DNA of 59,509 bases, counting the filler. It is 4 parts of 4 records of this genome, joined end to end, with 100 filler letters (N's around TTAATTAATTAA, not from the genome) between each part and the next. Parts side by side here need not be neighbours in the genome. Positions count along the whole stretch, not along the records: positions 31,449 to 59,509 come from DRR723986_5505; 3 more parts are not named here. One strand, given 5' to 3'. Below are positions 14,900 to 49,688 of this stretch, in pieces. The notes beneath the pieces are model-generated. The model ran no database searches. It saw only the letters and a program-made list of their open reading frames with translations, and had not been told where the DNA came from. The stretch's first letter is position 1. Each line of letters starts with the position of its first letter. A program made the position numbers and the translations under genes.

Positions 14900-14926
14900 G
14901 GCAGCTTTGGCAGCTTTGGCAGCTTT
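14900..14926. repeat. 9-bp tandem repeat (GGCAGCTTT)x3 at contig end
   Basis: Read directly; runs into the linker. Confidence 0.8.
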
Positions 14927-15026: not shown

Positions 15027-15027
15027 G

Positions 15028-34523: not shown

Positions 34524-34536
34524 TGCATGGATCCCC

Positions 34537-36054
34537 TCAGCCGACGCTCAACCGCAGGACATGATAGGAAAGCGGCGCAAGCTTGCCCTTGAGCTGACCA
34601 TCCTCCACGCCAACGCCTGTCCCCTTGCCGGGAACCACGTTGTCCGGCTTGTCCGGACCGTTGGTGTCATTGAGGCCGTAGCCTTCCATGGACAGATGTT
34701 CGGCCAGGGACGGCGAGCCGAAACCCGTCAAGGACACGTCGAGATCGGCCGTTTCGGTCAGATGCCGGTTCAGGATGAAAAGTGTCAGTGTGCCTGCTGC
34801 CTTGTCGTGTACCCCGGCAACGTCGAGGTAGCAGACGTCGTCGGCAACGGAACAGTCGTAGGTCGGTGCATCCACGGCAACGTTCAGCGCATCGCCGCGG
34901 CCGTAAAGAGACGCGAACTGATAGGGGTAATAGATGGTCTGACGCCAGGCGGGCCCGCCCTTTTCCGCCCGGATCGGGGCGATTACGTTGACCAGCTGGG
35001 CAATACAGGCAATACGCACACGGTCGGAGCGGCGGATGAACTCGTTGAGCAGGCCGGCGACAAAGAGAGCGTCCTCGAAGTTGTAGTTCTCTTCAAGCAG
35101 CGGCGGTGCTTCCGGCCAGTCCCATTCCTTGATGCGGCGGCTGTCGTCCTCGCGGATGTGGTACCACACATTCCACTCGTCGAAGCAGATATGGACGTCG
35201 TTCTTCGCACGCTTCTTGGACTTCACGTAGTCGATGACACCGCCAATGGTCTGGATGTAGCGGCCGGTTTCCTCGATCTTGCCGAAGTAGTTGAGCGTGT
35301 CCTTGCTCTTGTTGCCGAAATACTTGTGCAGCGAGATGTAGTCGACGTTCTCGTAGCACTCTTCCAGGACTTCGCGTTCCCATTCGGGATAGGTGGGCAT
35401 GCGGTCGTTTGAACTGCCGCAGACGACTGCCTCGATTGTCGGGTCAAAGCCTTTGAACGCCTTGGCCGTCTCGTTGGCCAGCCGGCCGTATTCCGTGGCG
35501 ACCTTGTGGCCGATCTGCCAGGGGCCGTCCATTTCGTTGCCGAGGCACCACATCTTGACCCCGTAAGGATCCTCGCGGCCATTGGAACGGCGCAGGTCGG
35601 ACCATTGGGTGCCACCGGGAAAATTCACATATTCCAGGAAGTTGCGTGCCTCTTCCAGACCACGCGAACCCAGGTTGACGGCCAGCATCATCTCGATGCC
35701 TGCCTGTTCCGCCCAGATTGCGAAATCGTCGATGCCGACCTGGTTGGTTTCCTTGCTGCGCCAGGCAAGATCGAGGCGGACGGGGCGCTTGTCCTTCGGG
35801 CCGATACCATCTTCCCAGTTGTAGGCGGAAACGAAGTTGCCGCCCGGGTAACGAATGGCCGGGATCCTGAGGTCCTGTACGAATTTCAGCACGTCCTTGC
35901 GAAAGCCGTTGGCATCGGCCTGCGGATGGTCAGGTTCATAAATGCCGGAATAGATCGCCCGTCCCATGTGTTCAATGAATGCGGAATAAAGCCGCTCATC
36001 GATGGAACTGATCCGGAAATCCCGATGCACGGTGACGCGTGCCTTCATTCGCAT
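34537..36054 (-). CDS. abfA: Alpha-L-arabinofuranosidase, GH51
   Basis: FIEHMGR, RYPGGNF, WCLGNEMDG, ISLHKY, FDEWNVW, AQLVNVI. Confidence 0.93.
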   Translation of the reverse strand: MRMKARVTVHRDFRISSIDERLYSAFIEHMGRAIYSGIYEPDHPQADANGFRKDVLKFVQDLRIPAIRYPGGNFVSAYNWEDGIGPKDKRPVRLDLAWRSKETNQVGIDDFAIWAEQAGIEMMLAVNLGSRGLEEARNFLEYVNFPGGTQWSDLRRSNGREDPYGVKMWCLGNEMDGPWQIGHKVATEYGRLANETAKAFKGFDPTIEAVVCGSSNDRMPTYPEWEREVLEECYENVDYISLHKYFGNKSKDTLNYFGKIEETGRYIQTIGGVIDYVKSKKRAKNDVHICFDEWNVWYHIREDDSRRIKEWDWPEAPPLLEENYNFEDALFVAGLLNEFIRRSDRVRIACIAQLVNVIAPIRAEKGGPAWRQTIYYPYQFASLYGRGDALNVAVDAPTYDCSVADDVCYLDVAGVHDKAAGTLTLFILNRHLTETADLDVSLTGFGSPSLAEHLSMEGYGLNDTNGPDKPDNVVPGKGTGVGVEDGQLKGKLAPLSYHVLRLSVG

Positions 36055-36068
36055 TCTCCCAGAAATAT

Positions 36069-36087
36069 ATATCGAATAAATCGATAT
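36069..36087. promoter_or_regulatory. Operator TATCG-N7-CGATA upstream of the GH51 operon
   Basis: ATATCGAATAAATCGATAT; the same core recurs at 37167-37183. Confidence 0.7.
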
Positions 36088-36199
36088 GAATCTTTATTTC
36101 TGATAAGAATGCGAGCTTGGCGAAAATTGTCAACTGGACAATGTTGTTGCGGTGCAACCAGAAGTGAATGTCCGCACGTCTTTTCAAGTGCAGTTTCGG

Positions 36200-37129
36200 T
36201 CAATTGCGGGTGTGCAGCCGCAAAATAATGTCCTGGTCGTAATTGCCGAAACCGCGGCCGAAGACGTTGATTCCGCCCGGGTGCCGCCCTTCGGCCTTTA
36301 CCTCAATCTTCAACCGAACCGACCGGTGCTCGTCGAGTTGGAGGTCTTCTGTCTTGATATCGGAGATCTTGTGACCATCCACGAAGGTGCCGTTCCTGCC
36401 GACGCTCCAGGTCTTCAGCATGCCGTATTGCGAACCGGAAAGCTTCCACCAGTCGGGTGTGTAGGCCCCGCGCTTGTCGCCGAAATCACCCGGGGACGTC
36501 CAGACGCCGATCTCCTTGCCGTTGATCGACAGGACGATGTCGGAGGGCCAGTTGCTCATGGTGCCCGGCACCTCGGAACTCACCTCCATCACGACGTCCA
36601 GACCGTCGATCTGCTTGCCCGTCAGCTTGGCGTTGTTGGGGAACTGATATTCGACGAAGCCACTGGTAAACCACAACAAAGCCGTTTTCATCCGCTCCGG
36701 ATCCATGAAAGTTTCCGGCACATCGAGAAGGCCGATGATCCCTTCGGTCGAGCAGATGCCGCAAGGAGCAGTGACGAGGCTGTTGGTGTAAAGGCCGAGC
36801 GGCATCGATACTTCGATCTGGTTCGGCTCGATGCGTTCTTCCGACGATCGGAAGGCCAGGATGATCTCATCGTAGATGGCGAAGGTCGTCTTCTGGCTGC
36901 CCTTCTTCGCCCGCTGCACTTCCGTTCGCACCAGGCCTGCTTCTTCCAGAACCTGGATGTGGGTGGAGACGGAGGATTGCGGCATGCCGGAAGCTTCCGA
37001 AAGCGCGTTGATGTTCATCCCGGGTGTCCGTACCAGCTCCTGCAACAGGTGCAGGCGAGGCTGGGAAGCGATCGCCTTCATGGCGATCTTGTCCTTGACG
37101 GGATCGACGATCAGAAAATTTGCGCGCAT
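36200..37129 (-). CDS. ArsR-HTH family regulator associated with arabinose/arabinan loci
   Basis: KAIAS..RL..L HTH; PCGI, LWF..GFVEY.FP, WPSDI, SPGDFG..RG..TP.WW...SQYG. Confidence 0.85.
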   Translation of the reverse strand: MRANFLIVDPVKDKIAMKAIASQPRLHLLQELVRTPGMNINALSEASGMPQSSVSTHIQVLEEAGLVRTEVQRAKKGSQKTTFAIYDEIILAFRSSEERIEPNQIEVSMPLGLYTNSLVTAPCGICSTEGIIGLLDVPETFMDPERMKTALLWFTSGFVEYQFPNNAKLTGKQIDGLDVVMEVSSEVPGTMSNWPSDIVLSINGKEIGVWTSPGDFGDKRGAYTPDWWKLSGSQYGMLKTWSVGRNGTFVDGHKISDIKTEDLQLDEHRSVRLKIEVKAEGRHPGGINVFGRGFGNYDQDIILRLHTRN

Positions 37130-37166
37130 GGGTTGTTCCCGGCTGTAAATCTGGAACAACTATTTG

Positions 37167-37183
37167 TATCGCTTTTTTCGATA
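37167..37183. promoter_or_regulatory. Operator TATCG-N7-CGATA upstream of the ArsR-family gene
   Basis: TATCGCTTTTTTCGATA. Confidence 0.65.
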
Positions 37184-37275
37184 ATTACAATTGCTGTTTC
37201 ACTGCGCCGGTTCGCAAGACCGATTTGAACCATCCGGCAAACAGAGTGCAGGCCGCCGGCAGAGTTCTTGCAAAC

Positions 37276-38181
37276 TCAGGAATCCAGCCGCAGCTGGGTG
37301 AGGGCGCGCTTGATTTCGTTGCCGAGCAACCGTTCGGGCGGCGAGATGCCGGAAGACGCGGACATGACGACACCAATGCGCAGGTTGGACAGGATGTCAT
37401 GCATCAGTGGCACGAAGCGGAGAATGCCCTGGTCGATTTCGTCGATGAAACCGATCTTGGTGTAAAGGCCGAGGCCTCGGCCGGCCAGGATCATCTGTTT
37501 TGCCACATGCAAGGTGTCGGTAAAGCAGTTGGTCGAGAGGGCGGAGGACATGCCCGAGATTGCCTGATCAATGATCGAATTGCGGCCGCGCGCATCCACG
37601 GTGCGCACCATTTTCTGGCCGGAGAGTTCCTCTATGGCAAGGTTTGTTCGGCCCGCGAAGGGATGGTCGGATCGCATGATGATGCCGATCGGCGCGGTCT
37701 TGTCGGAAATAACCCGAACGTTTGGATGCAGATCGAAAGTGAAGGTGATGCCGATATCGGCGATCCCGCCCGCGACAGCGGTAATGATCTCGTCCGGCTG
37801 CGCGGTGGTGATCGAATAGGTGACCTGCGGATAGATCCGGTTGAAGTCGAGCAGGATACGGGGCAACAGGCCGTAGGTTACGGAATCGATGGCGGCAATG
37901 TTGAGGTGCCCGGACCGAAGGTCGCGGATATCGTCCAGCATGGTGCGGGTGCGTTCATAATCCTGCAGCGTCTTGCGGCAGTGTTCCAGGACGATGGCCC
38001 CCGCATCGGTCAGCGTCACGCCTTCAGGGGTGCGCTCGAACAGGCGAACACCCATCTCGTTCTCGGTGCTGATGATCTTCCGGTTCACCGTGGTGGAAGA
38101 CACGTTCAAAACCGCAGATGCCTTGCGGATGGAGCCCTGGCGAGCGACTTCGTCGAAATAACGCAGAAAATTCGAATGCAC
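37276..38181 (-). CDS. LysR family regulator
   Basis: YFDEVARQGSIRKAS..LNVS, LFER...V.LT.AG. Confidence 0.95.
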   Translation of the reverse strand: MHSNFLRYFDEVARQGSIRKASAVLNVSSTTVNRKIISTENEMGVRLFERTPEGVTLTDAGAIVLEHCRKTLQDYERTRTMLDDIRDLRSGHLNIAAIDSVTYGLLPRILLDFNRIYPQVTYSITTAQPDEIITAVAGGIADIGITFTFDLHPNVRVISDKTAPIGIIMRSDHPFAGRTNLAIEELSGQKMVRTVDARGRNSIIDQAISGMSSALSTNCFTDTLHVAKQMILAGRGLGLYTKIGFIDEIDQGILRFVPLMHDILSNLRIGVVMSASSGISPPERLLGNEIKRALTQLRLDS

Positions 38182-38227
38182 GATGTCCCCCCGGACAGAG
38201 TGGCAAACAGTGCATCACAAAGTGCGG

Positions 38228-38240
38228 TGCATTTTATGCA
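38228..38240. promoter_or_regulatory. LysR box T-N11-A
   Basis: TGCATTTTATGCA palindrome in the divergent intergenic region; further TGCATC copies nearby. Confidence 0.6.
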
Positions 38241-38363
38241 TCACCGTTAGCATGTTTTTGCACTTTTTGCACCGTGCATCTTCCCGTTAGAGTTCACTGT
38301 GAAGTCGGCAAGGGGAACAGTCGGCCACAAACCGCCCAATCTCAAATGAGGGGGACCAACAGT

Positions 38364-39407
38364 ATGTCATACCTATTCTCGAATGGATTGAACCGCCGCT
38401 CGATGCTCAAGACCATGGCCGCAGGCGCTGGTCTGGCAGGCGCCGGAACACTTGTGAATATCGTACCAGGCTTTGCTCAGGACACCTTCAAGGTTTCCAT
38501 GCAGCTCGGCTGGCTGGCCGGTAACGGCAACCTGGGAGAAATCGCGGCCGACAAGCTGGGCTATTTTGCGGAAGAAGGTCTTGAATTCGAAATCGTGCCG
38601 GGGGGGCCGAATGTCGATGGTGTGGCGTCCGTCGCTTCCGGGCGATCCAATCTCGGCCAGGTGTCTTCCAGCCCCTCTCTCATGCTGGCGCGTTCGGCGG
38701 GCATTCCGGTGAAATGTATTGCCGCCGGTTACCAGCAGCATCCCTACACGTATTTCTCGCTCAAGAAGAATCCGATCAAGACACCGCAGGACATGATCGG
38801 CAAGACCATCGGCACCCAGGCGACCGGACGGATCCTGTTCCGCGCGCTTCTGGCCAAGAACGGCATTTCCGAGGACCAGGTTGAACTGAAGGTCATCGGC
38901 AGTGACATGGCGCCGCTGCTGACGGGGCAGGTTGATGCGATTACCGGCTGGAAGACAAACGTCAACGCGCTTTCGATCCTTGGGGACCAGCGTGTCGACA
39001 TGTCCCTGTGGGATGCGGGCATCCAGCTTTATGCCAACCCCTTCTACACCACGGACACTGTGCTGAACGAGCATGGCGACAAGGTGCAGGCCATGATCCG
39101 CGCCATCTCGCGCGGCTGGGGCTGGGTTCGTGAGAACCAGGAAGAAGCCGTCAACTATCTGGTCGAGCGCCTGCCGAACCTGGACAGGGAAAGCGAACTG
39201 AAGGCGGTGCCGCTGGTGGTCGGATATTCCTTCAACGAAAAGACCGCCGAAAACGGCTGGGGCACCATGACCCGCGAAAACTGGCAGGCACAGATCGAGA
39301 CTTATGAAAATCTCGAGCAATTCGCGAACGGGGCGCCCGCCGTCGACGATGTGATGACGCTGTCGGTCCTGGAGAGCACCGCAGACAGCCGCCCAAAGGT
39401 CGGTTAA
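38364..39407 (+). CDS. NMT1/THI5-like ABC substrate-binding protein (Tat signal)
   Basis: LNRRSMLK twin-Arg; QLGW, GYFAEEGL, PGGP, GKTIG. Confidence 0.88.
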   Translation: MSYLFSNGLNRRSMLKTMAAGAGLAGAGTLVNIVPGFAQDTFKVSMQLGWLAGNGNLGEIAADKLGYFAEEGLEFEIVPGGPNVDGVASVASGRSNLGQVSSSPSLMLARSAGIPVKCIAAGYQQHPYTYFSLKKNPIKTPQDMIGKTIGTQATGRILFRALLAKNGISEDQVELKVIGSDMAPLLTGQVDAITGWKTNVNALSILGDQRVDMSLWDAGIQLYANPFYTTDTVLNEHGDKVQAMIRAISRGWGWVRENQEEAVNYLVERLPNLDRESELKAVPLVVGYSFNEKTAENGWGTMTRENWQAQIETYENLEQFANGAPAVDDVMTLSVLESTADSRPKVG

Positions 39408-39411
39408 GGCC

Positions 39412-40209
39412 ATGGAAGCGGTATTGGAAAATCTGGACGCAGGCACATTGGTGCCTGCAGCCAGCCTGCGCAATGCCTGGGTCAAGTTTGGTCAGTTCAC
39501 CGCGATCCAGGACATCAGCCTGGAGATCGAGGCGGGAGCCTTCTATTCCATCCTTGGTCCATCGGGTTGTGGCAAGTCGACCTTGCTCCGGCTGGTGTCT
39601 GATCTCATCCCGCCTGCATCCGGGGACGTGTCGATCTTCGGCAAGACGACCGAGGCTGCCCGTCTGGCACGGGAATTTGCCTTCGTGTTTCAGGACGCGA
39701 CGCTGCTGCCCTGGCGCACGGCATTGGAGAACGTCCAGCTTCCCCTGGAAATGGGGCAGAGCCGCGGGATCCAGATCCCCGTCAGCGACAAGTCGCCGAT
39801 GGAGTTGCTTGAGCTGGTCGGGCTCAAAGGCCGCGAACATGCACTGCCGCACGAGCTTTCCGGAGGCATGCGCCAGCGTGTGGCGATTGCCCGTGCATTG
39901 GTCTGCAAGCCGAAGCTGTTGCTGATGGACGAGCCCTTCGGTGCGCTCGACGAGATGACCCGCGACCACCTGAACCTTCAGCTTCTGAAGGTCTGGGAGG
40001 AAACCGGCGTGACGATCCTGTTCGTAACCCACTCGATCCCGGAAGCGGTCTTTCTGGGGCAGAAGGTGCTGATGCTCAAGGCGCATCCGGGCCGCCTGCA
40101 CGAGATCGTCGATATCGATCTGCCATATCCGCGCACCACCGAGTTGCGGGATACGGCGGAATTCACCCGATACTCCGCGCATTTGCGCAAACTTCTGGAG
40201 GCGTGCTGA
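39412..40209 (+). CDS. NitT/TauB-type ABC ATPase
   Basis: GPSGCGKST, FQDATLLPW, LSGGMRQR, DEPFGALD, VTHSI.EA. Confidence 0.95.
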   Translation: MEAVLENLDAGTLVPAASLRNAWVKFGQFTAIQDISLEIEAGAFYSILGPSGCGKSTLLRLVSDLIPPASGDVSIFGKTTEAARLAREFAFVFQDATLLPWRTALENVQLPLEMGQSRGIQIPVSDKSPMELLELVGLKGREHALPHELSGGMRQRVAIARALVCKPKLLLMDEPFGALDEMTRDHLNLQLLKVWEETGVTILFVTHSIPEAVFLGQKVLMLKAHPGRLHEIVDIDLPYPRTTELRDTAEFTRYSAHLRKLLEAC

Positions 40210-41018
40210 TGACTGCCGTCGACGAAACGATGGGCATGCCGGTGGATGATGACGCTGCCGAAAAGGCCATGGCGCGAAGGGCACGGCTGACTGCTGTCGC
40301 GACCCCGGTGCTGACAGCGGTCGGCCTGATCGCCACCTGGGAAATCGGCGTCCGGGCCTTTGGTGTGCCGAGCTACATCGCCCCGGCCCCGAGCGAAGTC
40401 GCAACAACGCTGGTGACCGAATTTCCGCAGTTGATGCGGAACTTCTGGCCGACACTGTTCGAAAGCGTGCTCGGCTTTGTCGTCGGCAATGTGGCTGCAG
40501 TGCTGATCGCGATTGCCTTCGTGCACAGCCGGATGGTGGAGCGGGCGTTCTTCCCGATCGCGGTGTTCATCAACACCATTCCGATCCTGGCTATTGCCCC
40601 GATCCTGGTTCTGATCTTCGGAGCCGGACTGACCGCAAAGGTCGTCATCGCTGCCCTGATCTGTTTCTTCCCGACACTGGTCAACATGGTGCGCGGCCTG
40701 CAGTCGGTCAGCCCTCAGGCGCTGGAGCTGGCACGGATCCTGTCCGCCTCCAAGTCGGAAGTGTTCTGGAAGATCCGCCTGCCGTCTTCGCTGCCGTTCC
40801 TGTTTTCGGCACTGAAGATCGCGGCCACCACCTGTGTCATCGGCGCCATCGTCGGAGAATGGGTTGGCGCGGATGTCGGGCTGGGTGCGTTGATCATCGA
40901 TGCAACGTTCAATTTCCGCTCCGCCTTGCTCTACGCGACAGTCTTCCTGTCGTCGGGCCTGTCGGTGCTGATGTTTGCCGCCGTTTCCATTGCCGAACGC
41001 ATGATCGTGCGGTGGTGA
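40209..41018 (+). CDS. NitT/TauC-type ABC permease
   Basis: PAPSEV, PILAIAP, FFP, RLPSSLPFLF, VGEW; TGATG overlap. Confidence 0.92.
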   Translation: MTAVDETMGMPVDDDAAEKAMARRARLTAVATPVLTAVGLIATWEIGVRAFGVPSYIAPAPSEVATTLVTEFPQLMRNFWPTLFESVLGFVVGNVAAVLIAIAFVHSRMVERAFFPIAVFINTIPILAIAPILVLIFGAGLTAKVVIAALICFFPTLVNMVRGLQSVSPQALELARILSASKSEVFWKIRLPSSLPFLFSALKIAATTCVIGAIVGEWVGADVGLGALIIDATFNFRSALLYATVFLSSGLSVLMFAAVSIAERMIVRW

Positions 41019-41095
41019 AGCGGATTTGAACCAAACGAAAATCTGAACTGAAACCGGGCCGTCGCTTGGCGGCCCAACGGGAGGAGTGCGCCGAA

Positions 41096-42463
41096 ATGAG
41101 CACCAACACAACGCAGATTTCCTTGAACCGCAATGAGCAGGTTCCGGTCGTCGCAGACTGCGACGTGGTCGTCATCGGCGGTGGCCCCGCCGGCCTGAGT
41201 GCCGCCGTATCGGCTGCCAGAAACGGCTGCTCGGTGACCCTGCTCGAGCGTTACCATCACCTTGGCGGCATGGCCTCCGGCGGAATGGTTCTGGTGCTCG
41301 ACGACATGGTCAACGAGGGCAACGAAATCGTCACGACGGGCATCGTCAACGAATTCGTCGACCGGATGTCGGCGCAGGACGGCGCAGTTTTTCCGCCGCC
41401 GGAAGATTGCCTGACCAACTGGGAAATGTGGAAGAAGTGGTCCCGTTGGGGCTGCATCGATTTTCACAAGACCGGCATGCCTCAGCCGATCATTCACGCA
41501 GTTGCCTTCGACCCCGATTGCTGGAAACGGGTGAGCCTCGATCTGGTGCGTGAGGCAGGTGTCAATTTGCGCCTGCATTCGTGGTTTTCCGAAGCAATGG
41601 TGGAAGACGGCCGAGTGACCGGCGTGATCTGCCAGACCAAGCTTGGCCGTCAGGCGATCAAGGCGAAGATGGTGATTGATGCCAGCGGCGATCTGGATGT
41701 CGCATCCTCCGCAGGGGCGTCTTTTCAGACCGGACAGTACATCGTCACGACCGTGTTCCGCCTGTGCGATGTCGACACGGACAAGGCAGAAGCCTTCGAG
41801 TTCGAAAATCCGGAAGAATACAAGGCCCTGGACCGTCAGGTGCGCCGGGTGATTGGTGGCGCCTGGGGCATGTGGTGGCTGAAGACGCCGCTGCCGGGCA
41901 TCGTCTGGTGCAACTGCCCGCACATGCCGGGTTATGACGGCCTGTCGCCGGAACACATGCTGGCGGCGGAAGTCGAAGGCCGCGAGCGCATGATGAAGCT
42001 GCTTGCCTTCGTGCGCGCCAATCTGCCCGGTTTCGAAAACGCCAAGATGCTGGGCGCCGCGGAACAACTCGGCATTCGCCAGACCCGTCTGTTGCAGGGC
42101 GAATATGTGGTCACCCGCGATGACGTGCGCTCCCGCCGTCATTTCTCCGACAGCGTTTGCCGGGGCAGGGACTACTACACGCCTTACAGGGCCCTGCTGC
42201 CCAAGGGCATCGACAACATGATCGTTGCCGGTCGCCACTACTCGGTTGAGAGCGAAGCCCAGAAGCTTTCGCGGGAAATTCCGCCGTGCATGGCGCAGGG
42301 TGAAGCCGCCGGCGTCGCCGTTTCGGTCGCTCTGGAACAGAACTGTGCACTGCGCGACGCCGACGTTGCCACGATCCAGAAACGCATGCGTGCCCAGGGC
42401 GCCGACCCCGGCGACATCCCATCAGCAAATGCGCTCGTCGAAGGCACCGTCGCTGCAGAATAA
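41096..42463 (+). CDS. FAD-dependent oxidoreductase (FAD_oxidored/PF12831-like)
   Basis: GGGPAG, LGGMASGG, IDASGD.D, GIRQTR, PYRALLP, AGR, MAQGEAAG. Confidence 0.88.
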   Translation: MSTNTTQISLNRNEQVPVVADCDVVVIGGGPAGLSAAVSAARNGCSVTLLERYHHLGGMASGGMVLVLDDMVNEGNEIVTTGIVNEFVDRMSAQDGAVFPPPEDCLTNWEMWKKWSRWGCIDFHKTGMPQPIIHAVAFDPDCWKRVSLDLVREAGVNLRLHSWFSEAMVEDGRVTGVICQTKLGRQAIKAKMVIDASGDLDVASSAGASFQTGQYIVTTVFRLCDVDTDKAEAFEFENPEEYKALDRQVRRVIGGAWGMWWLKTPLPGIVWCNCPHMPGYDGLSPEHMLAAEVEGRERMMKLLAFVRANLPGFENAKMLGAAEQLGIRQTRLLQGEYVVTRDDVRSRRHFSDSVCRGRDYYTPYRALLPKGIDNMIVAGRHYSVESEAQKLSREIPPCMAQGEAAGVAVSVALEQNCALRDADVATIQKRMRAQGADPGDIPSANALVEGTVAAE

Positions 42464-42477
42464 AAAGGATAACAAAC

Positions 42478-43644
42478 GTGAATACCCAAGCTTTCCCACT
42501 CTCCGGTGTCCGCATTCTGGACTTCACCCAGGTCATGCTGGGGCCATGTGCAACCCAGATGCTGGCCGACTTCGGTGCGGACGTCATCAAGATCGAGCGC
42601 CCCGGTGCGGGCGACCTGTCGCGGCACTTCTTCGACGTGCGGTCGGAAGAGGGCATGAACAATGCCGTCTTCTCGTCGCTGAACCGCAACAAGCGGTCTG
42701 TCGAGATCGACACCAAGTCCGATGAGGGCAAGCAGATGGTGTACGATCTGGTACGCAATGCGGACGTGGTCGTCGACAATTTCCGCGCCGGTGTCATGGA
42801 CCGTCTGGGCTTCGGCTATGACGCGCTCAAGGCGATCAATCCCCGCATCATCTGTGCATCCGGAACGGGGTTTGGCGAGAAGGGCCCCTATGCCCACAAG
42901 GGCGGGCAGGACGTTCTGGCCCAGGCGATGAGCGGTGTCATGGAAAAGACCGCCGACCCGTCGATCGAGCGGTCCATCTACCCCACTACCTTGTGCGACT
43001 ATACGGCAGGCATGCACCTGGTTCAGGGCATTCTGGCGGCCTTGCTGGCACGGACGAAGACCGGCCGCGGCCAGCGGGTTTCCGTGTCGCTCTACGATTC
43101 CATGATCGCGATGCAGATGCAGGAAGCCGCACAGTGGACCAAGCACCGCGAAGTGCTGAACTGGGCCGCAATGCCCTTGACCGGTGTCTTCGACACCACT
43201 GACGGTGCTCTGGTGGTGGTCGGTGCCTTCAAGGCTAACCCGTTGCGCGACATCTGCACCGCGCTTGGCATCGAGGACCTTTCACCCACCTATCCGGACC
43301 TCGCCAGCCAGCGTGCCAACAAGCCCTATCTGCAGGACCGGTTTCGGGCCGTCTTCGCTACGGACACGACGGCGCACTGGATCGCCAGGCTGGAAGAGCA
43401 GGATCTGCTTTGCGCACCCGTGCGGGCGCTCGGAGAGGCACTCGAAGACCCGCAGACCGCCATCAACGGCATGCTGCTGGATTTCGACCATCCGGTCCTT
43501 GGCCCCTTGAGGGTTGTGGGGTCTCCCGTGCACTTGAGTGAAGCACCACTGAAACTGCGGCACGCACCGCCGCGCCTGGGCGAACACACCGACGAAGTCA
43601 TTGCGGAGTTCGGCCTGCAACAGGTGGCAGGGGCGGCGGAATGA
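42478..43644 (+). CDS. Class III CoA transferase (CaiB/BaiF)
   Basis: LADFGADVIKIE, NRNKRS, DNFRAG, D..AG, PPRLGEHT. Confidence 0.94.
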   Translation: MNTQAFPLSGVRILDFTQVMLGPCATQMLADFGADVIKIERPGAGDLSRHFFDVRSEEGMNNAVFSSLNRNKRSVEIDTKSDEGKQMVYDLVRNADVVVDNFRAGVMDRLGFGYDALKAINPRIICASGTGFGEKGPYAHKGGQDVLAQAMSGVMEKTADPSIERSIYPTTLCDYTAGMHLVQGILAALLARTKTGRGQRVSVSLYDSMIAMQMQEAAQWTKHREVLNWAAMPLTGVFDTTDGALVVVGAFKANPLRDICTALGIEDLSPTYPDLASQRANKPYLQDRFRAVFATDTTAHWIARLEEQDLLCAPVRALGEALEDPQTAINGMLLDFDHPVLGPLRVVGSPVHLSEAPLKLRHAPPRLGEHTDEVIAEFGLQQVAGAAE

Positions 43645-44417
43645 GTGTCCTTTTCACCCTCGAAAACCATGTCGCCCGGGTTGTCATCGACCGCCCGGAG
43701 CGCATGAACGCGGTCGACAGGGCAACTTCGGACGAGCTGGAAACCATCTGGCGGAAGATCGAAGCCGATCCGACCGTGCGCTGCGTGGTGTTGACCGGTT
43801 CGGGTGAACGCGCCTTTTCCGCCGGTGCGGACCTGAAGGACAGCAACGGCCTGAGTGGGCTTGAATATTGGGCGTCCGCAAACCCGCTTGGGTTCGGCGG
43901 CATCGCGCTGAGGCGCTCCTTGAGGGTGCCGGTGATTGCCCGCGTCAACGGTCTTGCGCTCGGCGGCGGCATGGAAATGGTTCTCGGCTGCGACATCGTG
44001 ATTGCCAGCGATACGGCCAGGTTCGGCCTGCCCGAAGCAAAGGTGGGCAACCTTCCGCTGGCAGGCGGGATGACGCTGCTTCAGCGTCTTGTCCCCCGCA
44101 ATATCGCTGTCGGACTGATGATGACCGGCCGGATGGCAAGCGCGGTGGAGATGGAGCGCTACGGGCTCGTCAATGCCGTCGTGCCGCAGGACGAACTCGA
44201 TGCGGAAGTGGACCGCTGGATTGCCGACATTCTGGCAAGTGCGCCGCTTTGCGTGCAGGCGATCAAGGCCACAGTACGTGAAACCGGTGAAATGCCGCCC
44301 GACCAGGCACAGGCCGTGCGGTCTCCCGAACTGATCGCCGCACTCACGTCAGAGGATTCCCTCGAAGGGGTTCGGGCATTCCGGGAAAAGCGCGCGCCGG
44401 TCTGGCAAGGCAAATGA
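43641..44417 (+). CDS. Enoyl-CoA hydratase/crotonase
   Basis: RMNA, FSAGADL, NGLALGGGME, FGLPE, EGVRAF.EKR.P.W.G. Confidence 0.94.
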   Translation: MSVLFTLENHVARVVIDRPERMNAVDRATSDELETIWRKIEADPTVRCVVLTGSGERAFSAGADLKDSNGLSGLEYWASANPLGFGGIALRRSLRVPVIARVNGLALGGGMEMVLGCDIVIASDTARFGLPEAKVGNLPLAGGMTLLQRLVPRNIAVGLMMTGRMASAVEMERYGLVNAVVPQDELDAEVDRWIADILASAPLCVQAIKATVRETGEMPPDQAQAVRSPELIAALTSEDSLEGVRAFREKRAPVWQGK

Positions 44418-44431
44418 GTTGAGAGATCAAG

Positions 44432-44779
44432 ATGGCGCTGATCATCAAGAGCGAATGCATTGATGTGAAGGACGGGATCTGCACCACGTCCTGTCCGGTC
44501 GACTGCATCTATGAAGGCGAGCGGATGTTCTACATCCACCCCGAAGAATGCATCGAATGCGGCATGTGCGAGAGCATCTGCCCGGTCGACGCGATCCGCT
44601 ACGACGACGAGGTGACCGGTGCGGACCGGGCGTTCATCGAGATCAACAAGGATGTGTTCCAGGGGCCGGACGGAGGGCTGGTCTCGCCGGGTGGCTGGAC
44701 CAGGGGCGATACGCCTTTCCGGGATCACCCTGCGGTGCGGGATTTTTTCAAACGCGATTTTGAGGAACAGACGACATGA
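44432..44779 (+). CDS. fdxA: 7Fe ferredoxin (FdxA type)
   Basis: CIDVKDGICTTSCPVDCIYEG...CIECGMCESICPVDAI. Confidence 0.9.
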   Translation: MALIIKSECIDVKDGICTTSCPVDCIYEGERMFYIHPEECIECGMCESICPVDAIRYDDEVTGADRAFIEINKDVFQGPDGGLVSPGGWTRGDTPFRDHPAVRDFFKRDFEEQTT

Positions 44780-45639
44780 AGGGGATAGTTGCGGCGGTGC
44801 CGACACCGCTCGATGCGCATGGCGCACCGGTGAAAGACACCTTTCTGGAACATTGCGCCTGGGCGCTGGCCAACGGGTGCGATGCCCTGAACATCCTGGG
44901 AACGACCGGTGAGGCGAATTCTCTCGGTCTGTCCCATCGCAAGCAAGTGATGGCCTGGGCGGCCGAAGCCTTTGACACGAGCTGTCTTATGGTCGGCACG
45001 GGTCTCACGTCGCTTGAGGACACGCTGGACCTCACGCGCGCAGCTGCCGACATGGGCTATGGCGTCGCGCTGGTCCTGCCGCCGTTCTACTACAAGCCTG
45101 TCACCGAAGAAGGGCTGGTTGCCTGGTACGAAGCGCTGGACCGGGCACTCGGCGCGACACCGATCGAGATCTATTTCTATAATTTCCCGCAGATGACGGG
45201 CCTGAAGATACCCGCGGATGTCGTCGAGCGTCTGGCAAAGACCCATCCGAAAAGGTTCACGGGCATCAAGGATTCTTCCGGCGATCTCGACTATTGCCTG
45301 GAGCTTATCCGGCGGCTGCCAGACCTGAAGGTGTTCCCAAGTTCTGAAACGGCGCTCGCGGAAGGGCCTGGAGCCGGGTTCGCAGGGTGCATTTCCGCCA
45401 CCGTGAACATCAGCGCGCCCCTTTGTGCGCGGCTCCTGCAGGACCCGGCAGACGAGGCATTGGCTGGCCGGGTCGCCAGCATACGGGCGGACATTGCGGC
45501 CCACCCGCTGGTGCCTGCGGTCAAATATCTTGTCGGCCGACGCGCTGCTGAAAGTGCCTGGAACCGTGTCCTGCCTCCCTTTCAACAACTGGACGATGCC
45601 GCATGCGGGTCTCTCGACCGCATTGCCGAAACCCTTTGA
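44776..45639 (+). CDS. DHDPS/NAL family aldolase or dehydratase
   Basis: GTTGE, PPFYY, YNFP, GIKDSSG (Schiff-base Lys). Confidence 0.9.
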   Translation: MKGIVAAVPTPLDAHGAPVKDTFLEHCAWALANGCDALNILGTTGEANSLGLSHRKQVMAWAAEAFDTSCLMVGTGLTSLEDTLDLTRAAADMGYGVALVLPPFYYKPVTEEGLVAWYEALDRALGATPIEIYFYNFPQMTGLKIPADVVERLAKTHPKRFTGIKDSSGDLDYCLELIRRLPDLKVFPSSETALAEGPGAGFAGCISATVNISAPLCARLLQDPADEALAGRVASIRADIAAHPLVPAVKYLVGRRAAESAWNRVLPPFQQLDDAACGSLDRIAETL

Positions 45640-45652
45640 AACCGGAATTCCA

Positions 45653-47089
45653 ATGACAAAGCACGATAATCTGATCGGCGGCAAATGGCTGCCTTCCAAC
45701 ACCTATTCCGAAAACCGCAATCCTTCGAACACCGATGATGTCGTCGGCCTTTATGCCCAGGGAAGCGTTGACGATGTCGATGCCGCCGTTGCGGCAGCGC
45801 GCAAGGCCGCGCCAGGCTGGGCGGCGGCAACGCCGCAGACCCGCCATGATCTGCTGGAAGCGGTTGGGCGAAAGTTGGCGGAACGGGCCGAAGAATATGG
45901 CGGCCTGCTGTCGCGCGAGGAAGGCAAGACGCTGGCGGAAGGCATCGGTGAAACCATGCGCGCCGCCCAGGTTTTCAAGTTCTTTGCCGGTGAAGCGTTG
46001 CGCGTGACCGGCGATATGCAGGCCTCCGTGCGGCCCGATATCGACGTTGAGGTTACGCGTGAGCCGGTCGGTGTGATCGGCCTGATCACCCCGTGGAACT
46101 TTCCCATCGCCATTCCCGCCTGGAAGGCAGCACCTGCGCTGGCCTATGGCAATTGCGTCGTTTTGAAACCGGCGGACCTAACGCCGGGCTGCGCTCATGT
46201 GATCGCAACGCTGCTGGATGAATGCGGCTGTCCGCCCGGTGTCTTCAACCTGGTCATGGGGCGCGGTTCTGTTGTTGGCGAGGCCATCGTCACCCATCCG
46301 GATGTCGATGCGGTTTCCTTCACCGGGTCCGTTGCCACGGGAAGCCATATTGCCGAAGTGTGCGGACGGCTTAAACGCAAGTGCCAGCTTGAAATGGGTG
46401 GCAAGAACCCGATGGTGGTGCTGGATGACGCCGACCTGGAGGTCGCCGTTTCCGCATGCCTGAACGGGACATTCTTTTCCACCGGCCAACGCTGCACCGC
46501 GTCCTCGCGCATGATCGTTCAGGCGGGCATTCACGACGCTTTCGTTGAGAAGCTGCAAACAGCGATGCTGGCCTTGAAGGTCGGGGATGCGCTTGATCCC
46601 GCTACCCAGATTGGACCGGTGGTCGACGAGAAACAGCTCTCTTCGAACCTTGCCTATGTGGACCTCGCCCGCAAGGAAGGAGCAAGGGTGATTGGCGGCG
46701 AGCGGCTCGAACTTGCCGTGCCCGGCTATTTTCAGGCCCCTGCACTGTTTCTCGAGACGACCAATTCCATGCGCATCAACCGGGAAGAGATTTTCGGTCC
46801 CTGCGGATCCGTCATCAAGGTGGCCGACTTCGAGGAAGCCATTACAGTTGCAAACGACACCGAATTCGGCCTGTCAGCCGGTATCTGCACCACAAGCCTG
46901 AAACATGCCCGCGACTTCAAGCGGCGTGCCAGGGCCGGTATGGTGATGGTCAACCTGCCGACCGCCGGTGTTGATTTTCACGTTCCCTTCGGCGGCACCA
47001 GGGGATCGTCTTTTGGACCACGTGAACAGGGCCGCTACGCGGCGGAATTCTTCACCACGGTCAAGACCAGCTACCTGTTTGCAGGCTAG
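45653..47089 (+). CDS. Aldehyde dehydrogenase (KGSA dehydrogenase-like)
   Basis: ITPWNFP, FTGS, LEMGGKNP, GQRCTA, EEIFGP. Confidence 0.92.
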   Translation: MTKHDNLIGGKWLPSNTYSENRNPSNTDDVVGLYAQGSVDDVDAAVAAARKAAPGWAAATPQTRHDLLEAVGRKLAERAEEYGGLLSREEGKTLAEGIGETMRAAQVFKFFAGEALRVTGDMQASVRPDIDVEVTREPVGVIGLITPWNFPIAIPAWKAAPALAYGNCVVLKPADLTPGCAHVIATLLDECGCPPGVFNLVMGRGSVVGEAIVTHPDVDAVSFTGSVATGSHIAEVCGRLKRKCQLEMGGKNPMVVLDDADLEVAVSACLNGTFFSTGQRCTASSRMIVQAGIHDAFVEKLQTAMLALKVGDALDPATQIGPVVDEKQLSSNLAYVDLARKEGARVIGGERLELAVPGYFQAPALFLETTNSMRINREEIFGPCGSVIKVADFEEAITVANDTEFGLSAGICTTSLKHARDFKRRARAGMVMVNLPTAGVDFHVPFGGTRGSSFGPREQGRYAAEFFTTVKTSYLFAG

Positions 47090-47099
47090 GAGAAGCACA

Positions 47100-47576
47100 T
47101 TGGGCAGCAATTCCGGCAAATGGCGCAACCGGTTTCTCGGGCTGTGCGATCACATCGCACAATGGTCTGAAGATCGCGACTTCAAGGTGGGCGCAGTCAT
47201 TGTCGGACCTGGCCAGGAAATCCGCGCGACAGGTTACAACGGCCTGCCGCGCGGGGTCTCCGGAACGGACGAGACCCGTCTCGACCGCCCGAGCGGTGAA
47301 AAGTTCTTCTGGGTGGAACACGCCGAACGCAATGCGATTTACAACGCAGCCCGCGCCGGTGTAGCGCTTGCCGGTTGCACCCTCTACGTCAACCGGTTTC
47401 CCTGTGCGGACTGCGCGAGGGCGATCATTCAAAGCGGGCTGTCCTGTGTGGAATGCCCGCCCAGACCATCGCATGACGGCAAGCTTGATCACAGTTTTGA
47501 GGTTTCCGAGCTCATGCTCAAGGAAGCTGGAATAAAGATGACGCTTGCTAAGCCGACTGCCGGCGGCTCCAGCTAA
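47100..47576 (+). CDS. dCMP deaminase/ComEB-like Zn deaminase
   Basis: TTG start after AGGAG; KVGAVIV, TGYNG.PRG, HAERNA, PCADC. Confidence 0.88.
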   Translation: MGSNSGKWRNRFLGLCDHIAQWSEDRDFKVGAVIVGPGQEIRATGYNGLPRGVSGTDETRLDRPSGEKFFWVEHAERNAIYNAARAGVALAGCTLYVNRFPCADCARAIIQSGLSCVECPPRPSHDGKLDHSFEVSELMLKEAGIKMTLAKPTAGGSS

Positions 47577-47617
47577 CACCGGGAGTTCCTTGGGTGGGCG
47601 GGCCGGTTTGGTGGTGG

Positions 47618-48100
47618 TCAGTCGCCCCGGCGGGCCGCATCGATGGCAGCCACGTCGATTTTCTTCATCTCCATCATTGCGCCAAAGGCGCGCTTTGCTT
47701 CGCCGCCGCCGGCAGCCAGGGCTTCCATCAGCGTGCGCGGGGTGATCTGCCAGGAGATGCCCCATTTGTCCCTGCACCATCCGCAGGCGCTTTCCTCGCC
47801 GCCATTGTCGACAATGGCGTTCCAGTAACGGTCGGTTTCTTCCTGATCCTCGGTCGAAACCTGGAAAGAGAACGCTTCGCTGTGCTTGAATGTGGGGCCG
47901 CCGTTCAAGCCGAGACAAGGAATGCCCAGCACGGTAAATTCCACGGTCAGAACGTCGCCCTCTTTCCCGGAAGGATAGTCGCCGGGGGCGTGGTTGACGG
48001 CTTTCAGAGCACTGTCTGGAAAGGTTTCAGCGTAAAATCGTGCCGCGGCCTCGGCGTCTTTTTCGTACCAGAGGCAAATCGTGTTCTTTGCAATCGACAT
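47618..48100 (-). CDS. VOC/PhnB (3-dmu-9-3-mt) family protein
   Basis: AEAAARFY, LNGGP.F, SFQV, CGWCRDKWGISWQI. Confidence 0.92.
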   Translation of the reverse strand: MSIAKNTICLWYEKDAEAAARFYAETFPDSALKAVNHAPGDYPSGKEGDVLTVEFTVLGIPCLGLNGGPTFKHSEAFSFQVSTEDQEETDRYWNAIVDNGGEESACGWCRDKWGISWQITPRTLMEALAAGGGEAKRAFGAMMEMKKIDVAAIDAARRGD

Positions 48101-48190
48101 TGTTTCCAGTCCTGGAGTTATACCGTCGCCCCGGGTGGCTCTACTCAAAGATCCAGAGGCGACATGACATTGTTTGCGGAAAAGCCCGCG

Positions 48191-48865
48191 TCAGCCCGTG
48201 CTGCGTTTCGCTTGTTCGGCGTCCGCCGCCTGCCAATGCTGCATGTGATCTGCCATGGCCTTCTTGAAAGCGGGGCGGGATGTTGCCCGTTCGACATAGG
48301 CTGCAAGATCCGGATAGGCATCAAGGGCCTCTTCGGCCGCGACCACGCGCAGCACTTCCACCATCGCGATGTCGGCGACGGAGAAGTCACCGGCGAGCCA
48401 CTCCTTGTCGCCCAGAGCCTGCTGTAGCGCAGTCAGCTTGGTTTCCACGTCTGCCTTGGCGTGAGCCCTGACGTCGGCTGCCGGAGGAGGGCCGAAGAAT
48501 TCCGGGACCCGCTCGGCCAGGATCATGCTGACCCAGTGCATCACCGACAATTCAACCGTGTTCAGCGCGGCGAACAGCCACTGCCAGATTTCCGCTTTCC
48601 GGTCGTCCGGCAGCAACGGCGTGCCTTCGCAAAGGTAGACAAGGATCGCTCCGCTTTCGAAAAGCGTCTGCTCACCGTCCTGGATTACGGGCACTTGCGT
48701 AAATGGCTGCAGCTTGCGGTGTTCGGCGCTCTTGGGGTGTGCGGGCACGGTCGCAACCTGGTAGCTGCGACCAATCTCCTCCAGGCCCCAGCGGACCCGT
48801 AGATCCCGCACGAACCCGCGTGGAAACTCCGGCAGCCAGTCGAAGGTGTAGAGGGTAAGGGTCAT
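48191..48865 (-). CDS. Glutathione S-transferase family
   Basis: RVRWGLEE, QPF.QVP, LFESGAI, FSVADI. Confidence 0.92.
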   Translation of the reverse strand: MTLTLYTFDWLPEFPRGFVRDLRVRWGLEEIGRSYQVATVPAHPKSAEHRKLQPFTQVPVIQDGEQTLFESGAILVYLCEGTPLLPDDRKAEIWQWLFAALNTVELSVMHWVSMILAERVPEFFGPPPAADVRAHAKADVETKLTALQQALGDKEWLAGDFSVADIAMVEVLRVVAAEEALDAYPDLAAYVERATSRPAFKKAMADHMQHWQAADAEQAKRSTG

Positions 48866-49587
48866 GCGGCTTTCTCCGAGTCGAAGAGCGGATCGAAGCC
48901 GGCCCACATCATCCGCATTCCGTCGAAAGGCATTGCGGACATGTCCATGTCGGCCATCCCCGCTTCCATTTCTTTGGCGGCGGCATCACATGTGGCGCGG
49001 TCCGGCCAGGCAACCCAGCTGAAGACGGGCACTTCGGTGTCTTCCACCTTGGAGGCCCGGTAGAAATCGGTCTTCTGACCGCGCGGTACATCCGTGCCCC
49101 AGTTTTCGATCATCCCGAGAGCGCCGAATTTCTCGAACATCTTCCAGCCTTCGTCCGCCATCTCGGCGTAGGCCTTCTTGTTCGTTTCGGGCACTGCCAG
49201 CAAAAACCCCTGATAATAGCCAGCATCACTGTGCCTGCCTGCCTCGTAGACAGGGGCAAATCCGCCGAAGATCATCCGGCTGCCATCGAACGGCATTTCC
49301 GGAATTTCCTTCATGGCAGGGTCGTTCTGCATCTTTTCCCAGGAAGCATCGGCAGCAGCCTTGTCCGGCCATTCGATCCAGGAAAACACGATTGCCTCGT
49401 CTTCCTTGGCGTCGACGGCACCGTAGAAGTCCGTAACCTTGCCCTTCGGAACATCAACACCCCAGGTTTCGACCATGCGGGTGGCGCCGTAGGATTTGAA
49501 CAGAGGCCAGGCAGCGGCGATGTGGTCGGCATATTTCTGCTTGTTTGCGGCCGGAACAGCCGCTACCGCACCTGTGAAATAGGACAT
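48862..49587 (-). CDS. Tandem DUF1428 protein
   Basis: Two copies of W..DVP.G..TDFY...FSW..WPD...MPFDG.RM. Confidence 0.9.
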   Translation of the reverse strand: MSYFTGAVAAVPAANKQKYADHIAAAWPLFKSYGATRMVETWGVDVPKGKVTDFYGAVDAKEDEAIVFSWIEWPDKAAADASWEKMQNDPAMKEIPEMPFDGSRMIFGGFAPVYEAGRHSDAGYYQGFLLAVPETNKKAYAEMADEGWKMFEKFGALGMIENWGTDVPRGQKTDFYRASKVEDTEVPVFSWVAWPDRATCDAAAKEMEAGMADMDMSAMPFDGMRMMWAGFDPLFDSEKAA

Positions 49588-49656
49588 GGCGATCATTTCC
49601 TCCTTTTTGTCGGGATGATGGGAACATCCCGGTTGCAGCATTATCGTGACAGCGTT

Positions 49657-49688
49657 AGTATGAAAAAACAACTGCCAGTATGAAAAAA
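49657..49688. promoter_or_regulatory. Direct repeat AGTATGAAAAAA x2 (20-bp period), probable HxlR operator
   Basis: Copies at 49657-49668 and 49677-49688, the second overlapping the HxlR start. Confidence 0.55.

Follow-up and report, generated by a model that had tools for sequence, protein, structure and literature searches.

The described systems closest to the gene cluster reported here each share part of its make-up. In the cai/fix system of Escherichia coli, a class III CoA-transferase and a crotonase act on the CoA ester of a polar acid, and a FixC-type flavoprotein is accompanied by a small ferredoxin. The upper benzoyl-CoA pathway joins a thioester, a low-potential two-electron reduction and a crotonase-type hydration, an analogy that would hold if the substrate of the present cluster were heteroaromatic. 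In the glucarate, L-arabinonate and hydroxyproline routes, dehydratases or deaminases of the dihydrodipicolinate synthase (DHDPS) family precede α-ketoglutarate semialdehyde dehydrogenase (KGSADH), and the ThiXYZ importer uses ThiY, a substrate-binding protein (SBP) of the NMT1/THI5 fold family. DmdB, DmdC and DmdD of methylmercaptopropionate catabolism lead through a CoA ester and an enoyl-CoA, from which a crotonase-fold enzyme expels a heteroatom substituent. A report on Variovorax paradoxus TBEA6 proposes a matching CoA-ester and enoyl-CoA-hydratase route for 3,3′-thiodipropionate (PMC6370202). An N-heterocyclic carboxylate operon with an aldehyde dehydrogenase (ALDH)-like gene, homABCDER, was recently described for homarine catabolism in marine Rhodobacterales and others (Nat Microbiol 2026, PMC13236597).

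Here we describe a gene cluster at positions 37276–47576 of a 59,509-nt stretch of DNA (filler included; "the window" below denotes this whole stretch), within the part taken from record DRR723986_5505. A LysR-family regulator gene on the minus strand diverges from ten co-directional plus-strand genes, three for transport and seven for enzymes and redox proteins (Table 1). The cluster is real and widely conserved, and it unites familiar enzyme families in a combination that we found described in no open-access paper or preprint, as the first-pass annotation had supposed when it recognised no described pathway with this gene set. We regard it as a good candidate for a pathway that is new but assembled from known families of enzymes. 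Compared by gene set, it shares with homABCDER the ALDH family alone: that operon is set apart by a TgnAB-like flavin pair (HomA/HomB), a peptidase-like HomC and a betaine-type carrier, and it has no CoA-transferase, crotonase, ferredoxin or DHDPS member; its description uses none of the words ferredoxin, enoyl and dihydrodipicolinate (PMC13236597). The reading that we favour, though tentatively, is a LysR-induced operon for the uptake and catabolism of a carboxylic acid through a CoA-dependent half-cycle. The acid would probably carry an amidine-type amino-N-heterocycle, for example a cytosine- or adenine-like 4-aminopyrimidine ring or a nucleoside-like analogue.

The genes travel together. 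Scanning a single genome per species gave 80 loci with a flavoprotein relative, and open reading frames (ORFs) were clustered in 76 loci, leaving out the annotated plasmid loci L001 and L002 and the Firmicutes loci L078–L081 (30% identity). The flavoprotein, CoA-transferase and crotonase genes each occur in 74 of the 76 loci and the ferredoxin gene in 68, in constant order, so that the co-conservation of the flavoprotein neighbourhood, which the first-pass annotation had proposed as a check, holds. The permease and ATPase genes were each found in 61 loci, the SBP gene and a syntenic LysR gene each in 59, and the genes for the DHDPS-family lyase, the cytidine deaminase (CDA)-fold deaminase and the ALDH in 48, 45 and 41, respectively. 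No further gene family is present in 20 or more of the 76 loci; a short-chain dehydrogenase/reductase (SDR) family occurs in 15, no more than about 10 kb from the flavoprotein gene. The last three genes of the operon form a mosaic among the 56 full-length type-1 loci, type 1 being set at a flavoprotein identity of at least 73% and full length at 6 kb or more of sequence downstream. All three are present in 19 loci, DHDPS and deaminase in 14, deaminase only in 10, DHDPS and ALDH in 7, ALDH and deaminase in 2, DHDPS only in 2 and none in 2, giving single-gene totals of 45 for the deaminase, 42 for the DHDPS member and 28 for the ALDH. The fixed unit is therefore the importer, flavoprotein, CoA-transferase, crotonase and ferredoxin, and the genes for the DHDPS member, ALDH and deaminase are frequent but dispensable at the locus.

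The core extends over Alpha- and Gammaproteobacteria and Actinomycetota at 58–94% flavoprotein identity, and the cluster was found in at least 70 named species or metagenome-assembled genomes (MAGs; marine Rhodobacterales, Hyphomicrobiales, Woeseiaceae and soil Actinomycetota). A second alphaproteobacterial type has a flavoprotein about 60% identical, and gammaproteobacterial loci retain the flavoprotein, CoA-transferase, crotonase and ferredoxin. Actinobacterial loci are ordered as a major facilitator superfamily (MFS) carrier, flavoprotein, CoA-transferase, crotonase, a very divergent DHDPS-family gene, an SDR, an ALDH and an adenosine-deaminase-family gene. They thus cover the same functional categories (DHDPS family, ALDH and deaminase, plus SDR) with divergent or unrelated proteins.

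Pathway membership was judged by the NCBIfam equivalog cut-offs, each gene being compared with its nearest named models (values below are score/cut-off in bits). Every catabolic gene stays under the cut-offs of all named enzymes, and at this level the set maps to no characterised pathway, in agreement with the first-pass annotation. The CoA-transferase, covered by PF02515 from position 1 to 366 of 366, scores 272/442 against formyl-CoA transferase, 249/750 against the succinate–glutarate enzyme and 228/700 against the mesaconate enzyme, and its best full-length match in the PDB is SUGCT (9br6). Its nearest relatives use succinyl- or formyl-CoA with dicarboxylates, and its segment LCDYTAGMH presumably stands at the position of the catalytic Asp of formyl-CoA transferase. 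The crotonase scores 268/400 against DpgD and 231/400 against EchA19. Short-chain hydratases and annotated carnitinyl-CoA dehydratases are its PDB neighbours, and its segments GGGME and LPEAKVG are taken here to hold the two catalytic Glu.

Together with the flavoprotein, FixC-like in its modelled fold, and the ferredoxin, its presumed partner, these two enzymes would mirror E. coli cai/fix, and a Cai-like dehydroxylation of a β-hydroxy acid, for example of 5-hydroxyectoine to ectoine, has to be considered: CoA transfer, crotonase dehydration and ferredoxin-driven reduction of the enoyl-CoA, with the CoA passed on to the next substrate molecule. 5-Hydroxyectoine is a β-hydroxy acid on a 2-methyl-tetrahydropyrimidine ring, which would suit a ThiY-like SBP and amidine hydrolases, and the ectoine hydrolase EutD scored over its cut-off in 3 of the 5 cluster-bearing genomes searched. 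Of the other two, G076 (92% complete) has no EutD match and one has a sub-threshold match only; the Pfam-scanned flanks of the cluster in 25 loci contain no gene for ectoine catabolism, and a hydroxyectoine route via EutABC has already been proposed. Such a scheme would also leave the DHDPS-family lyase and the ALDH without a role. The enzymes themselves score far under the carnitine models, with 102/413 for CaiB L-carnitine CoA-transferase (NF002914) and 193/500 for CaiD crotonobetainyl-CoA hydratase (NF002936). In further contrast to cai/fix, none of the 11 genes of the cluster has a CaiA-type acyl-CoA dehydrogenase or FixAB electron-transfer flavoprotein (ETF) domain, nor was one found in the scanned flanks. 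A BCCT antiporter is lacking, the ferredoxin is of the 7Fe FdxA type and not FixX, and the cluster has a DHDPS-family lyase, an ALDH and a deaminase in addition. We regard the dehydroxylation of a β-hydroxy acid as highly improbable.

The DHDPS-family lyase and the ALDH had suggested, in the first-pass annotation, the ending of a non-phosphorylative sugar-acid pathway. One can extend this to the whole operon, as a sugar-acid or hydroxyproline-like pathway that ends in α-ketoglutarate semialdehyde, with the deaminase a passenger or a housekeeping dCMP deaminase. The order of a DHDPS-family gene followed by an ALDH agrees with such lower pathways. The best named models of the ALDH are KGSADH GucD (NF042993, 501/770) and 2,5-dioxovalerate dehydrogenase (NF052305, 498/750), the latter being again the best model for the actinobacterial ALDH. 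Relatives of the flavoprotein also point this way: PF12831 paralogs of 30–36% identity stand beside ILVD_EDD-type sugar-acid dehydratases in L088, L091 and L093 (genomes G026, G245 and G206), with an MFS carrier next to the dehydratase in L088 and L093. The enzymes of the operon do not carry the argument through, as both proteins fall well under the respective cut-offs. The lyase scores 50/374 (TIGR03249) and 58/278 (NF002958) against the KdgD models, compared with 114/206 against dapA (TIGR00674), and its nearest PDB entry is 3b4u, deposited as dihydrodipicolinate synthase. Its motif YNFPQMTG is nearer to DapA/NAL-type aldolases than to dehydratases; the Met presumably occupies the place of Arg138 of E. 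coli DapA, which binds the carboxylate of aspartate semialdehyde. The dehydratases, epimerases and D-amino-acid dehydrogenases of the glucarate, L-arabinonate and hydroxyproline routes are not in the cluster. The sugar-acid ending is therefore not supported, and an operon-wide pathway of this kind appears very unlikely, also in view of the deaminase data below.

The signature gene of the cluster encodes a flavoprotein of family PF12831 for which no assigned reaction was found in NCBIfam, by PDB sequence search or in the open-access literature. Its PDB sequence matches, like the named NCBIfam models, cover only the dinucleotide (FAD)-binding start, and the ESM Atlas returned only unnamed "FAD-dependent oxidoreductase" clusters. 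The protein is 58–94% identical across 34 aligned homologs from three phyla, and an AlphaFold (AF2) model built on 35 homologs reached a pLDDT of 83 and a pTM of 0.87. In a structural search against representatives, the model matched best FixC of the Fix/EtfABCX complex (7koe, Z 21.1, rmsd 4.5, 313 aligned residues) and then the geranylgeranyl-reductase (GGR)-like 3oz2 (Z 20.3), followed by halogenases, amine oxidases and fumarate-reductase/ketosteroid-dehydrogenase types at Z 15–19. Both the FixC and the geranylgeranyl reductase groups work with a small dedicated ferredoxin. The ferredoxin of the cluster, which adjoins the core in 68 of the 76 loci, scores 115/125 against FdxA_Actino; Cys9, 17, 21, 40, 43 and 50 are invariant in 26 aligned homologs, and Cys46 is kept in at least 90%. 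Since 7Fe ferredoxins mostly have a low potential and one of the closest folds is that of a ferredoxin-driven C=C reductase, reduction is the favoured direction. The predicted fold points to a two-electron step with ferredoxin on a C–C or C=C bond, without assigning a reaction. In L092 (G105), a flavoprotein paralog stands between two AMP-dependent ligase genes upstream and a LysR gene and a PrpF-family isomerase gene downstream; with the paralogs beside ILVD_EDD-type dehydratases, the PF12831 family may serve several acid-catabolic routes.

The opposite direction leads to a serious rival, although we consider it unlikely. A 3-substituted propionate or 2-substituted succinate X–CH2–CH2–COOH, with X attached via N, S or O, would be cleaved oxidatively at the β-carbon as in the Dmd and thiodipropionate routes. 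The CoA-transferase would activate the acid, the flavoprotein would dehydrogenate it to the enoyl-CoA, and the ferredoxin would pass the electrons to the respiratory chain as part of a split ETF-QO-like unit. The crotonase would then hydrate the β-carbon, and the resulting hemiaminal or hemithioacetal would fall apart into X–H (for instance a nucleobase, which would then be deaminated) and a 3-oxo-acyl-CoA or semialdehyde, taken by the ALDH. The logic of the triad is that of DmdB, DmdC and DmdD, and the FixC/ETF-QO-like fold fits an exit of electrons to quinone. Continued β-oxidation is hinted at by the SDR gene in 15 of the 76 loci, located between the DHDPS and ALDH genes in actinobacterial loci, and by a thiolase and an SDR gene after the deaminase gene in L041. 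Release of a free base would, moreover, explain why deaminases of differing base preference occur across phyla. The same scheme has to do without an acyl-CoA dehydrogenase or ETF, we know of no PF12831 enzyme that dehydrogenates acyl-CoAs, and a low-potential 7Fe ferredoxin would be a poor acceptor for the enoyl/acyl couple. It leaves the DHDPS-family lyase without a role, and to our knowledge no natural, abundant N-(2-carboxyethyl) nucleobase exists. Compared with DmdBCD and the TBEA6 route (PMC6370202), the cluster uses a transferase instead of a ligase and PF12831 with ferredoxin instead of an acyl-CoA dehydrogenase, and it has no sulfur-handling genes. The dehydroxylation and the sugar-acid or hydroxyproline explanations are weaker than this one.

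Evidence for the kind of substrate comes from the carriers and from the deaminase. The nearest solved relatives of the SBP are ThiY, which binds N-formyl-4-amino-5-aminomethyl-2-methylpyrimidine (FAMP; 3ix1, E 1.3e-18, 70 bits), and 4nmy; against SsuA_fam it scores 65/163. The putative ligand class is thus suggested by a similarity of E 1e-18 to FAMP-binding ThiY. The SBP begins with NRRSMLK and a hydrophobic stretch, which we read as a putative twin-arginine signal, and the best NCBIfam matches of the ATPase are TauB/NtrCD/SaoA-like, all under cut-off. Elsewhere the ABC importer is exchanged for other carriers, an ACS (D-galactonate-type) family MFS protein in gammaproteobacterial loci (Woeseiaceae and others) and an MHS (metabolite:H+) family MFS protein, together with a cupin-HTH regulator, in actinobacterial loci. 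ACS- and MHS-family carriers move organic acids, and a CoA-transferase needs a free carboxylate on its substrate. From this exchange of carriers the substrate is predicted to be an organic acid, in keeping with its activation by the CoA-transferase. In a Rhodobacter MAG (L055), a 784-aa ORF on the opposite strand (5675–8029), with DruA-like and transposase DNA-binding domains, splits the SBP and ATPase genes.

The deaminase resembles dCMP deaminases. Its nearest PDB entries are the CMP/dCMP-type deaminase 7fh4 (E 2e-24) and human dCMP deaminase 2w4l (E 3.5e-16). It retains all dCMP-deaminase motifs, a point in favour of a housekeeping role and thus of the sugar-acid explanation, namely the zinc motifs HAE and PCxxC (VEHAERNAI, FPCADCARAI) and GYNG; its score against the ComEB dCMP deaminase model (TIGR02571) is 50/219. 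The distribution of the deaminase and the flavoprotein was examined in an even sample of 301 alphaproteobacterial genomes. Nine of them have the flavoprotein at 59% identity or more (16 at E ≤ 1e-60, counting paralogs of 34–39%). The deaminase, at 67% identity or more, was confined to the 3 genomes that have a type-1 cluster, where it lies 4.6–6 kb downstream of the flavoprotein gene, and weaker homologs (34–52%) occur in 21 genomes, all without a flavoprotein match. The remaining 277 genomes have no dCMP-deaminase homolog, so the enzyme is not a housekeeping one in Alphaproteobacteria. Nor is it a passenger, as its clade is found only with the cluster and, in other lineages, different deaminase families take over its slot; the CDA deaminase is dedicated to the cluster.

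An adenosine-deaminase-family gene (TIGR01430, 205/217) directly follows the ALDH gene in all three actinobacterial loci with enough sequence. In the second alphaproteobacterial type, cog0402-like amidohydrolase genes run co-directionally with the cluster in L067 and L068, and lie next to it in L086 and, as a pair, in L085; none is present in L066, L083, L084 or L087. A further co-directional cog0402 gene comes after the MFS gene in L061. A creatininase-family gene takes the CDA deaminase slot in L049. The first-pass guess of a pyrimidine- or nucleobase-like heterocycle gains from this pattern, in which three unrelated nucleobase/nucleoside-deaminase superfamilies fill the slot and the CDA type stands only beside the cluster. 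Hydrolytic deamination of an amidine (cytosine- or adenine-like) seems to be a recurrent but peripheral step, and the simplest reading is a funnel by which an amino-form substrate or a released base is deaminated to its oxo form. Two Woeseiaceae-type loci (L063, L065) have genes for a xanthine/uracil permease, a purine nucleoside permease (NUP) and a YjjX-type ITPase/XTPase 3–10 kb upstream of the flavoprotein gene. The purine link is suggestive, and it was not used as evidence because it is confined to these two related genomes.

For the favoured CoA-dependent route, the following order can be proposed. The ThiY-like NMT1 protein would capture the acid in the periplasm for import through the ABC transporter, and the deaminase, where present, would hydrolyse the amino form to the oxo form as a peripheral funnel and not as a core step. 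The class III CoA-transferase would form the acyl-CoA, drawing CoA from succinyl-CoA or from the CoA ester of the pathway's product. The FixC/GGR-like flavoprotein and the 7Fe ferredoxin would then carry out one two-electron step on the C–C bond next to the thioester, preferably the reduction of a C=C or ring bond, with oxidation to an enoyl-CoA as the alternative, and the crotonase would add or remove water at the β-carbon. The DHDPS-family lyase and the ALDH would handle a 4-hydroxy-2-oxo-acid/aldehyde pair, yielding pyruvate and an acid. Because the mosaic distribution allows both, this pair may act downstream of the core or feed into it as a second funnel, for which NahE/NahF is a model. 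Gene content, synteny, family membership, the exchange of carriers and deaminases and the fold class of the flavoprotein are observations; the substrate class, the order of the steps and the redox direction are what we infer from them.

Several points weigh against this proposal. The enzyme activities are predicted from family membership and fold. The list of fold matches of the flavoprotein runs continuously from Z 21 to 15 and singles out no reaction type, so it is a pointer and not a reaction, and Foldseek against the PDB gave TM-scores of only 0.35–0.49 and no clear family. A low-potential ferredoxin favours reduction but would be unusual for an aerobic catabolic step, and no ferredoxin gene was found in the actinobacterial clusters by tblastn. 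The similarity of the SBP to ThiY is modest; compared with ThiXYZ, the importer belongs to a catabolic operon under LysR and lacks a thiamine pyrophosphate (TPP) riboswitch. The deaminase is missing from 11 of the 56 type-1 loci, and in the five deaminase-less cluster genomes searched (three Paracoccus, one Thalassorhabdomicrobium and one Rhizobium) no homolog occurs anywhere at E ≤ 1e-8. The core substrate thus need not carry an amino group, and the first-pass treatment of the deaminase as a core gene cannot be upheld. Four gammaproteobacterial loci have an ADA2-like gene nearby; these genes were given little weight because they are encoded on the opposite strand, together with PhyH and sulfatase proteins, and they may belong to another unit. 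Finally, no ring-opening amidohydrolase or other hydrolase is conserved in the type-1 cluster, and the dismantling of a heterocycle that the first-pass annotation had foreseen finds no support in the gene set. Overall, its heterocycle idea is strengthened by the displacement of the deaminase, and its sugar-acid ending and its nucleobase dismantling are left unsupported.

A bolder and rather unlikely version is an aza-analogue of the upper benzoyl-CoA pathway, in which a ferredoxin-driven CoA-thioester route in aerobic marine and soil bacteria would reduce and hydrate a pyrimidine-type carboxylate. The DHDPS-type lyase and the ALDH would convert the ring, once opened, to pyruvate and an acid, and the CDA, ADA and cog0402 deaminases would funnel in the amino forms. 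The proteins of the cluster are not homologous to benzoyl-CoA reductases of either class I or class II, and its hosts are aerobes or facultative aerobes.

Among individual substrates, homarine was rejected, as a different operon, homABCDER, already explains it (PMC13236597). 5-Carboxyuracil (isoorotate) was set aside too, since the best 15 of 69 literature matches listed showed only fungal and decarboxylase work and no CoA route. Dipicolinate conflicts with the Arg lacking in the DHDPS member. For an analogy with 6-hydroxynicotinate reductase and enamidase, the literature matches listed name no family for the reductase. Nucleoside-5′-carboxylates, 4-amino-2-methylpyrimidine-5-carboxylate, picolinate, pyrrole-2-carboxylate, pterin-6-carboxylate and 3-sulfopropionate are candidates on chemical grounds only.

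The genes named in the first-pass annotation are all present, on the same strands and at about the same coordinates, and its tight coupling holds, with overlaps of 1 nt (ATPase/permease) and 4 nt (CoA-transferase/crotonase and ferredoxin/DHDPS) and remaining gaps of 4–14 nt, except for 77 nt ahead of the flavoprotein gene. The gene set of its nine-gene operon is real and its count one short, there being ten co-directional genes. Gene starts match the PGAP annotation of the 98%-identical Roseibium aggregatum plasmid NZ_CP045628, and the whole operon is 97.7–98.0% identical to ten Roseibium/Labrenzia plasmids of 270–540 kb; on this sequence identity we place the cluster on a Roseibium megaplasmid. 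Within the operon, neither terminator-like (13 vs 10.5) nor promoter-like (2 vs 2.2) consensus matches exceed the shuffled expectation. The operon stretch is present as contigs in 4 of 4 RNA-library runs, once as a 26-kb piece, which is no measure of transcription or its level, and a 3.5-kb RNA-library contig in run X9 spans the CoA-transferase to ALDH genes, which is no proof of a single transcript.

The LysR protein has no NCBIfam equivalog (best 112/415). The 182-bp region between the LysR and SBP genes holds two TGCA-N5-TGCA boxes, at 38228–38240 and 38259–38271. The window as a whole has four matches to this pattern, two of them in the control region, compared with 1.87 expected, and 11 of 100 shuffles reach four. 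The first box, with the flanking TCAC-GT-GCA, is kept in 8 of 8 aligned intergenic regions, from loci with a flavoprotein 78–95% identical. The T-N11-A box of the first-pass annotation is trivial by chance as a bare motif; what stands in its place are these two boxes, the first of them conserved. A riboswitch gave no clue to the ligand: no Rfam family matched at E ≤ 0.1 within 34000–50000 (no TPP or other riboswitch), and in seven divergent loci only a tRNA matched.

Table 1. Features of the gene cluster, in window coordinates.
Feature	Position	Strand	Basis
LysR-family regulator	37276..38181	-	Pfam HTH_1 + LysR_substrate
Divergent control region with two TGCA-N5-TGCA (T-N11-A type) boxes	38182..38363	.	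sequence
Periplasmic SBP, NMT1/THI5 family, RR-type signal	38364..39407	+	PF09084, E 3.5e-50
ABC ATPase, taurine/nitrate-type subfamily	39412..40209	+	PF00005
ABC permease	40209..41018	+	PF00528; start from PGAP call on 98%-identical plasmid
FAD flavoprotein (FAD_oxidored), signature gene of the cluster	41096..42463	+	PF12831, E 4e-87
Class III (CaiB/BaiF/Frc) CoA-transferase	42478..43644	+	PF02515, E 3e-113
Crotonase-fold enoyl-CoA hydratase (ECH_1)	43641..44417	+	PF00378, E 5e-57
7Fe-type ferredoxin, presumed flavoprotein partner	44432..44779	+	Pfam 4Fe-4S ferredoxin; FdxA_Actino 115 bits
DHDPS/NAL-family class I lyase	44776..45639	+	PF00701, E 7e-36
NAD(P)-dependent aldehyde dehydrogenase (ALDH)	45653..47089	+	PF00171, E 1e-157
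CDA-fold, dCMP-deaminase-like zinc deaminase	47100..47576	+	PF00383 (dCMP_cyt_deam_1), E 1.6e-20

On the LysR side, a minus-strand gene at 36200–37159, between an arabinofuranosidase/sugar-ABC cluster and the LysR gene, encodes a 319-aa protein with an N-terminal winged helix (ArsR/MarR-like) and about 220 C-terminal residues without a Pfam match. Convergent to the 3′ end of the operon (47618–49695, minus strand) are genes for a VOC-family protein, a glutathione S-transferase (GST) and a double-domain DUF1428 protein. Searches with tblastn recovered the VOC gene from only 3 other loci (L001, L003, L008) and the GST gene from only 2 (L001, L003), so this trio is probably not part of the pathway. 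Further away, positions 4001–16000 of the window have a G+C fraction of 0.49–0.54, compared with 0.55–0.63 elsewhere in it, and may be a foreign insert.

If the reading given here is correct, the cluster would encode an undescribed catabolic pathway spread over marine and soil bacteria. Naming its substrate would name a metabolite exchanged in algal–bacterial and sediment communities and would give a function to a large unannotated flavoprotein family, and the dedicated SBP and LysR sensor offer a handle for finding it. The replacement of the deaminase by two or three unrelated ones in a single slot is a clean case of non-orthologous displacement, and it can guide the choice of candidate substrates.

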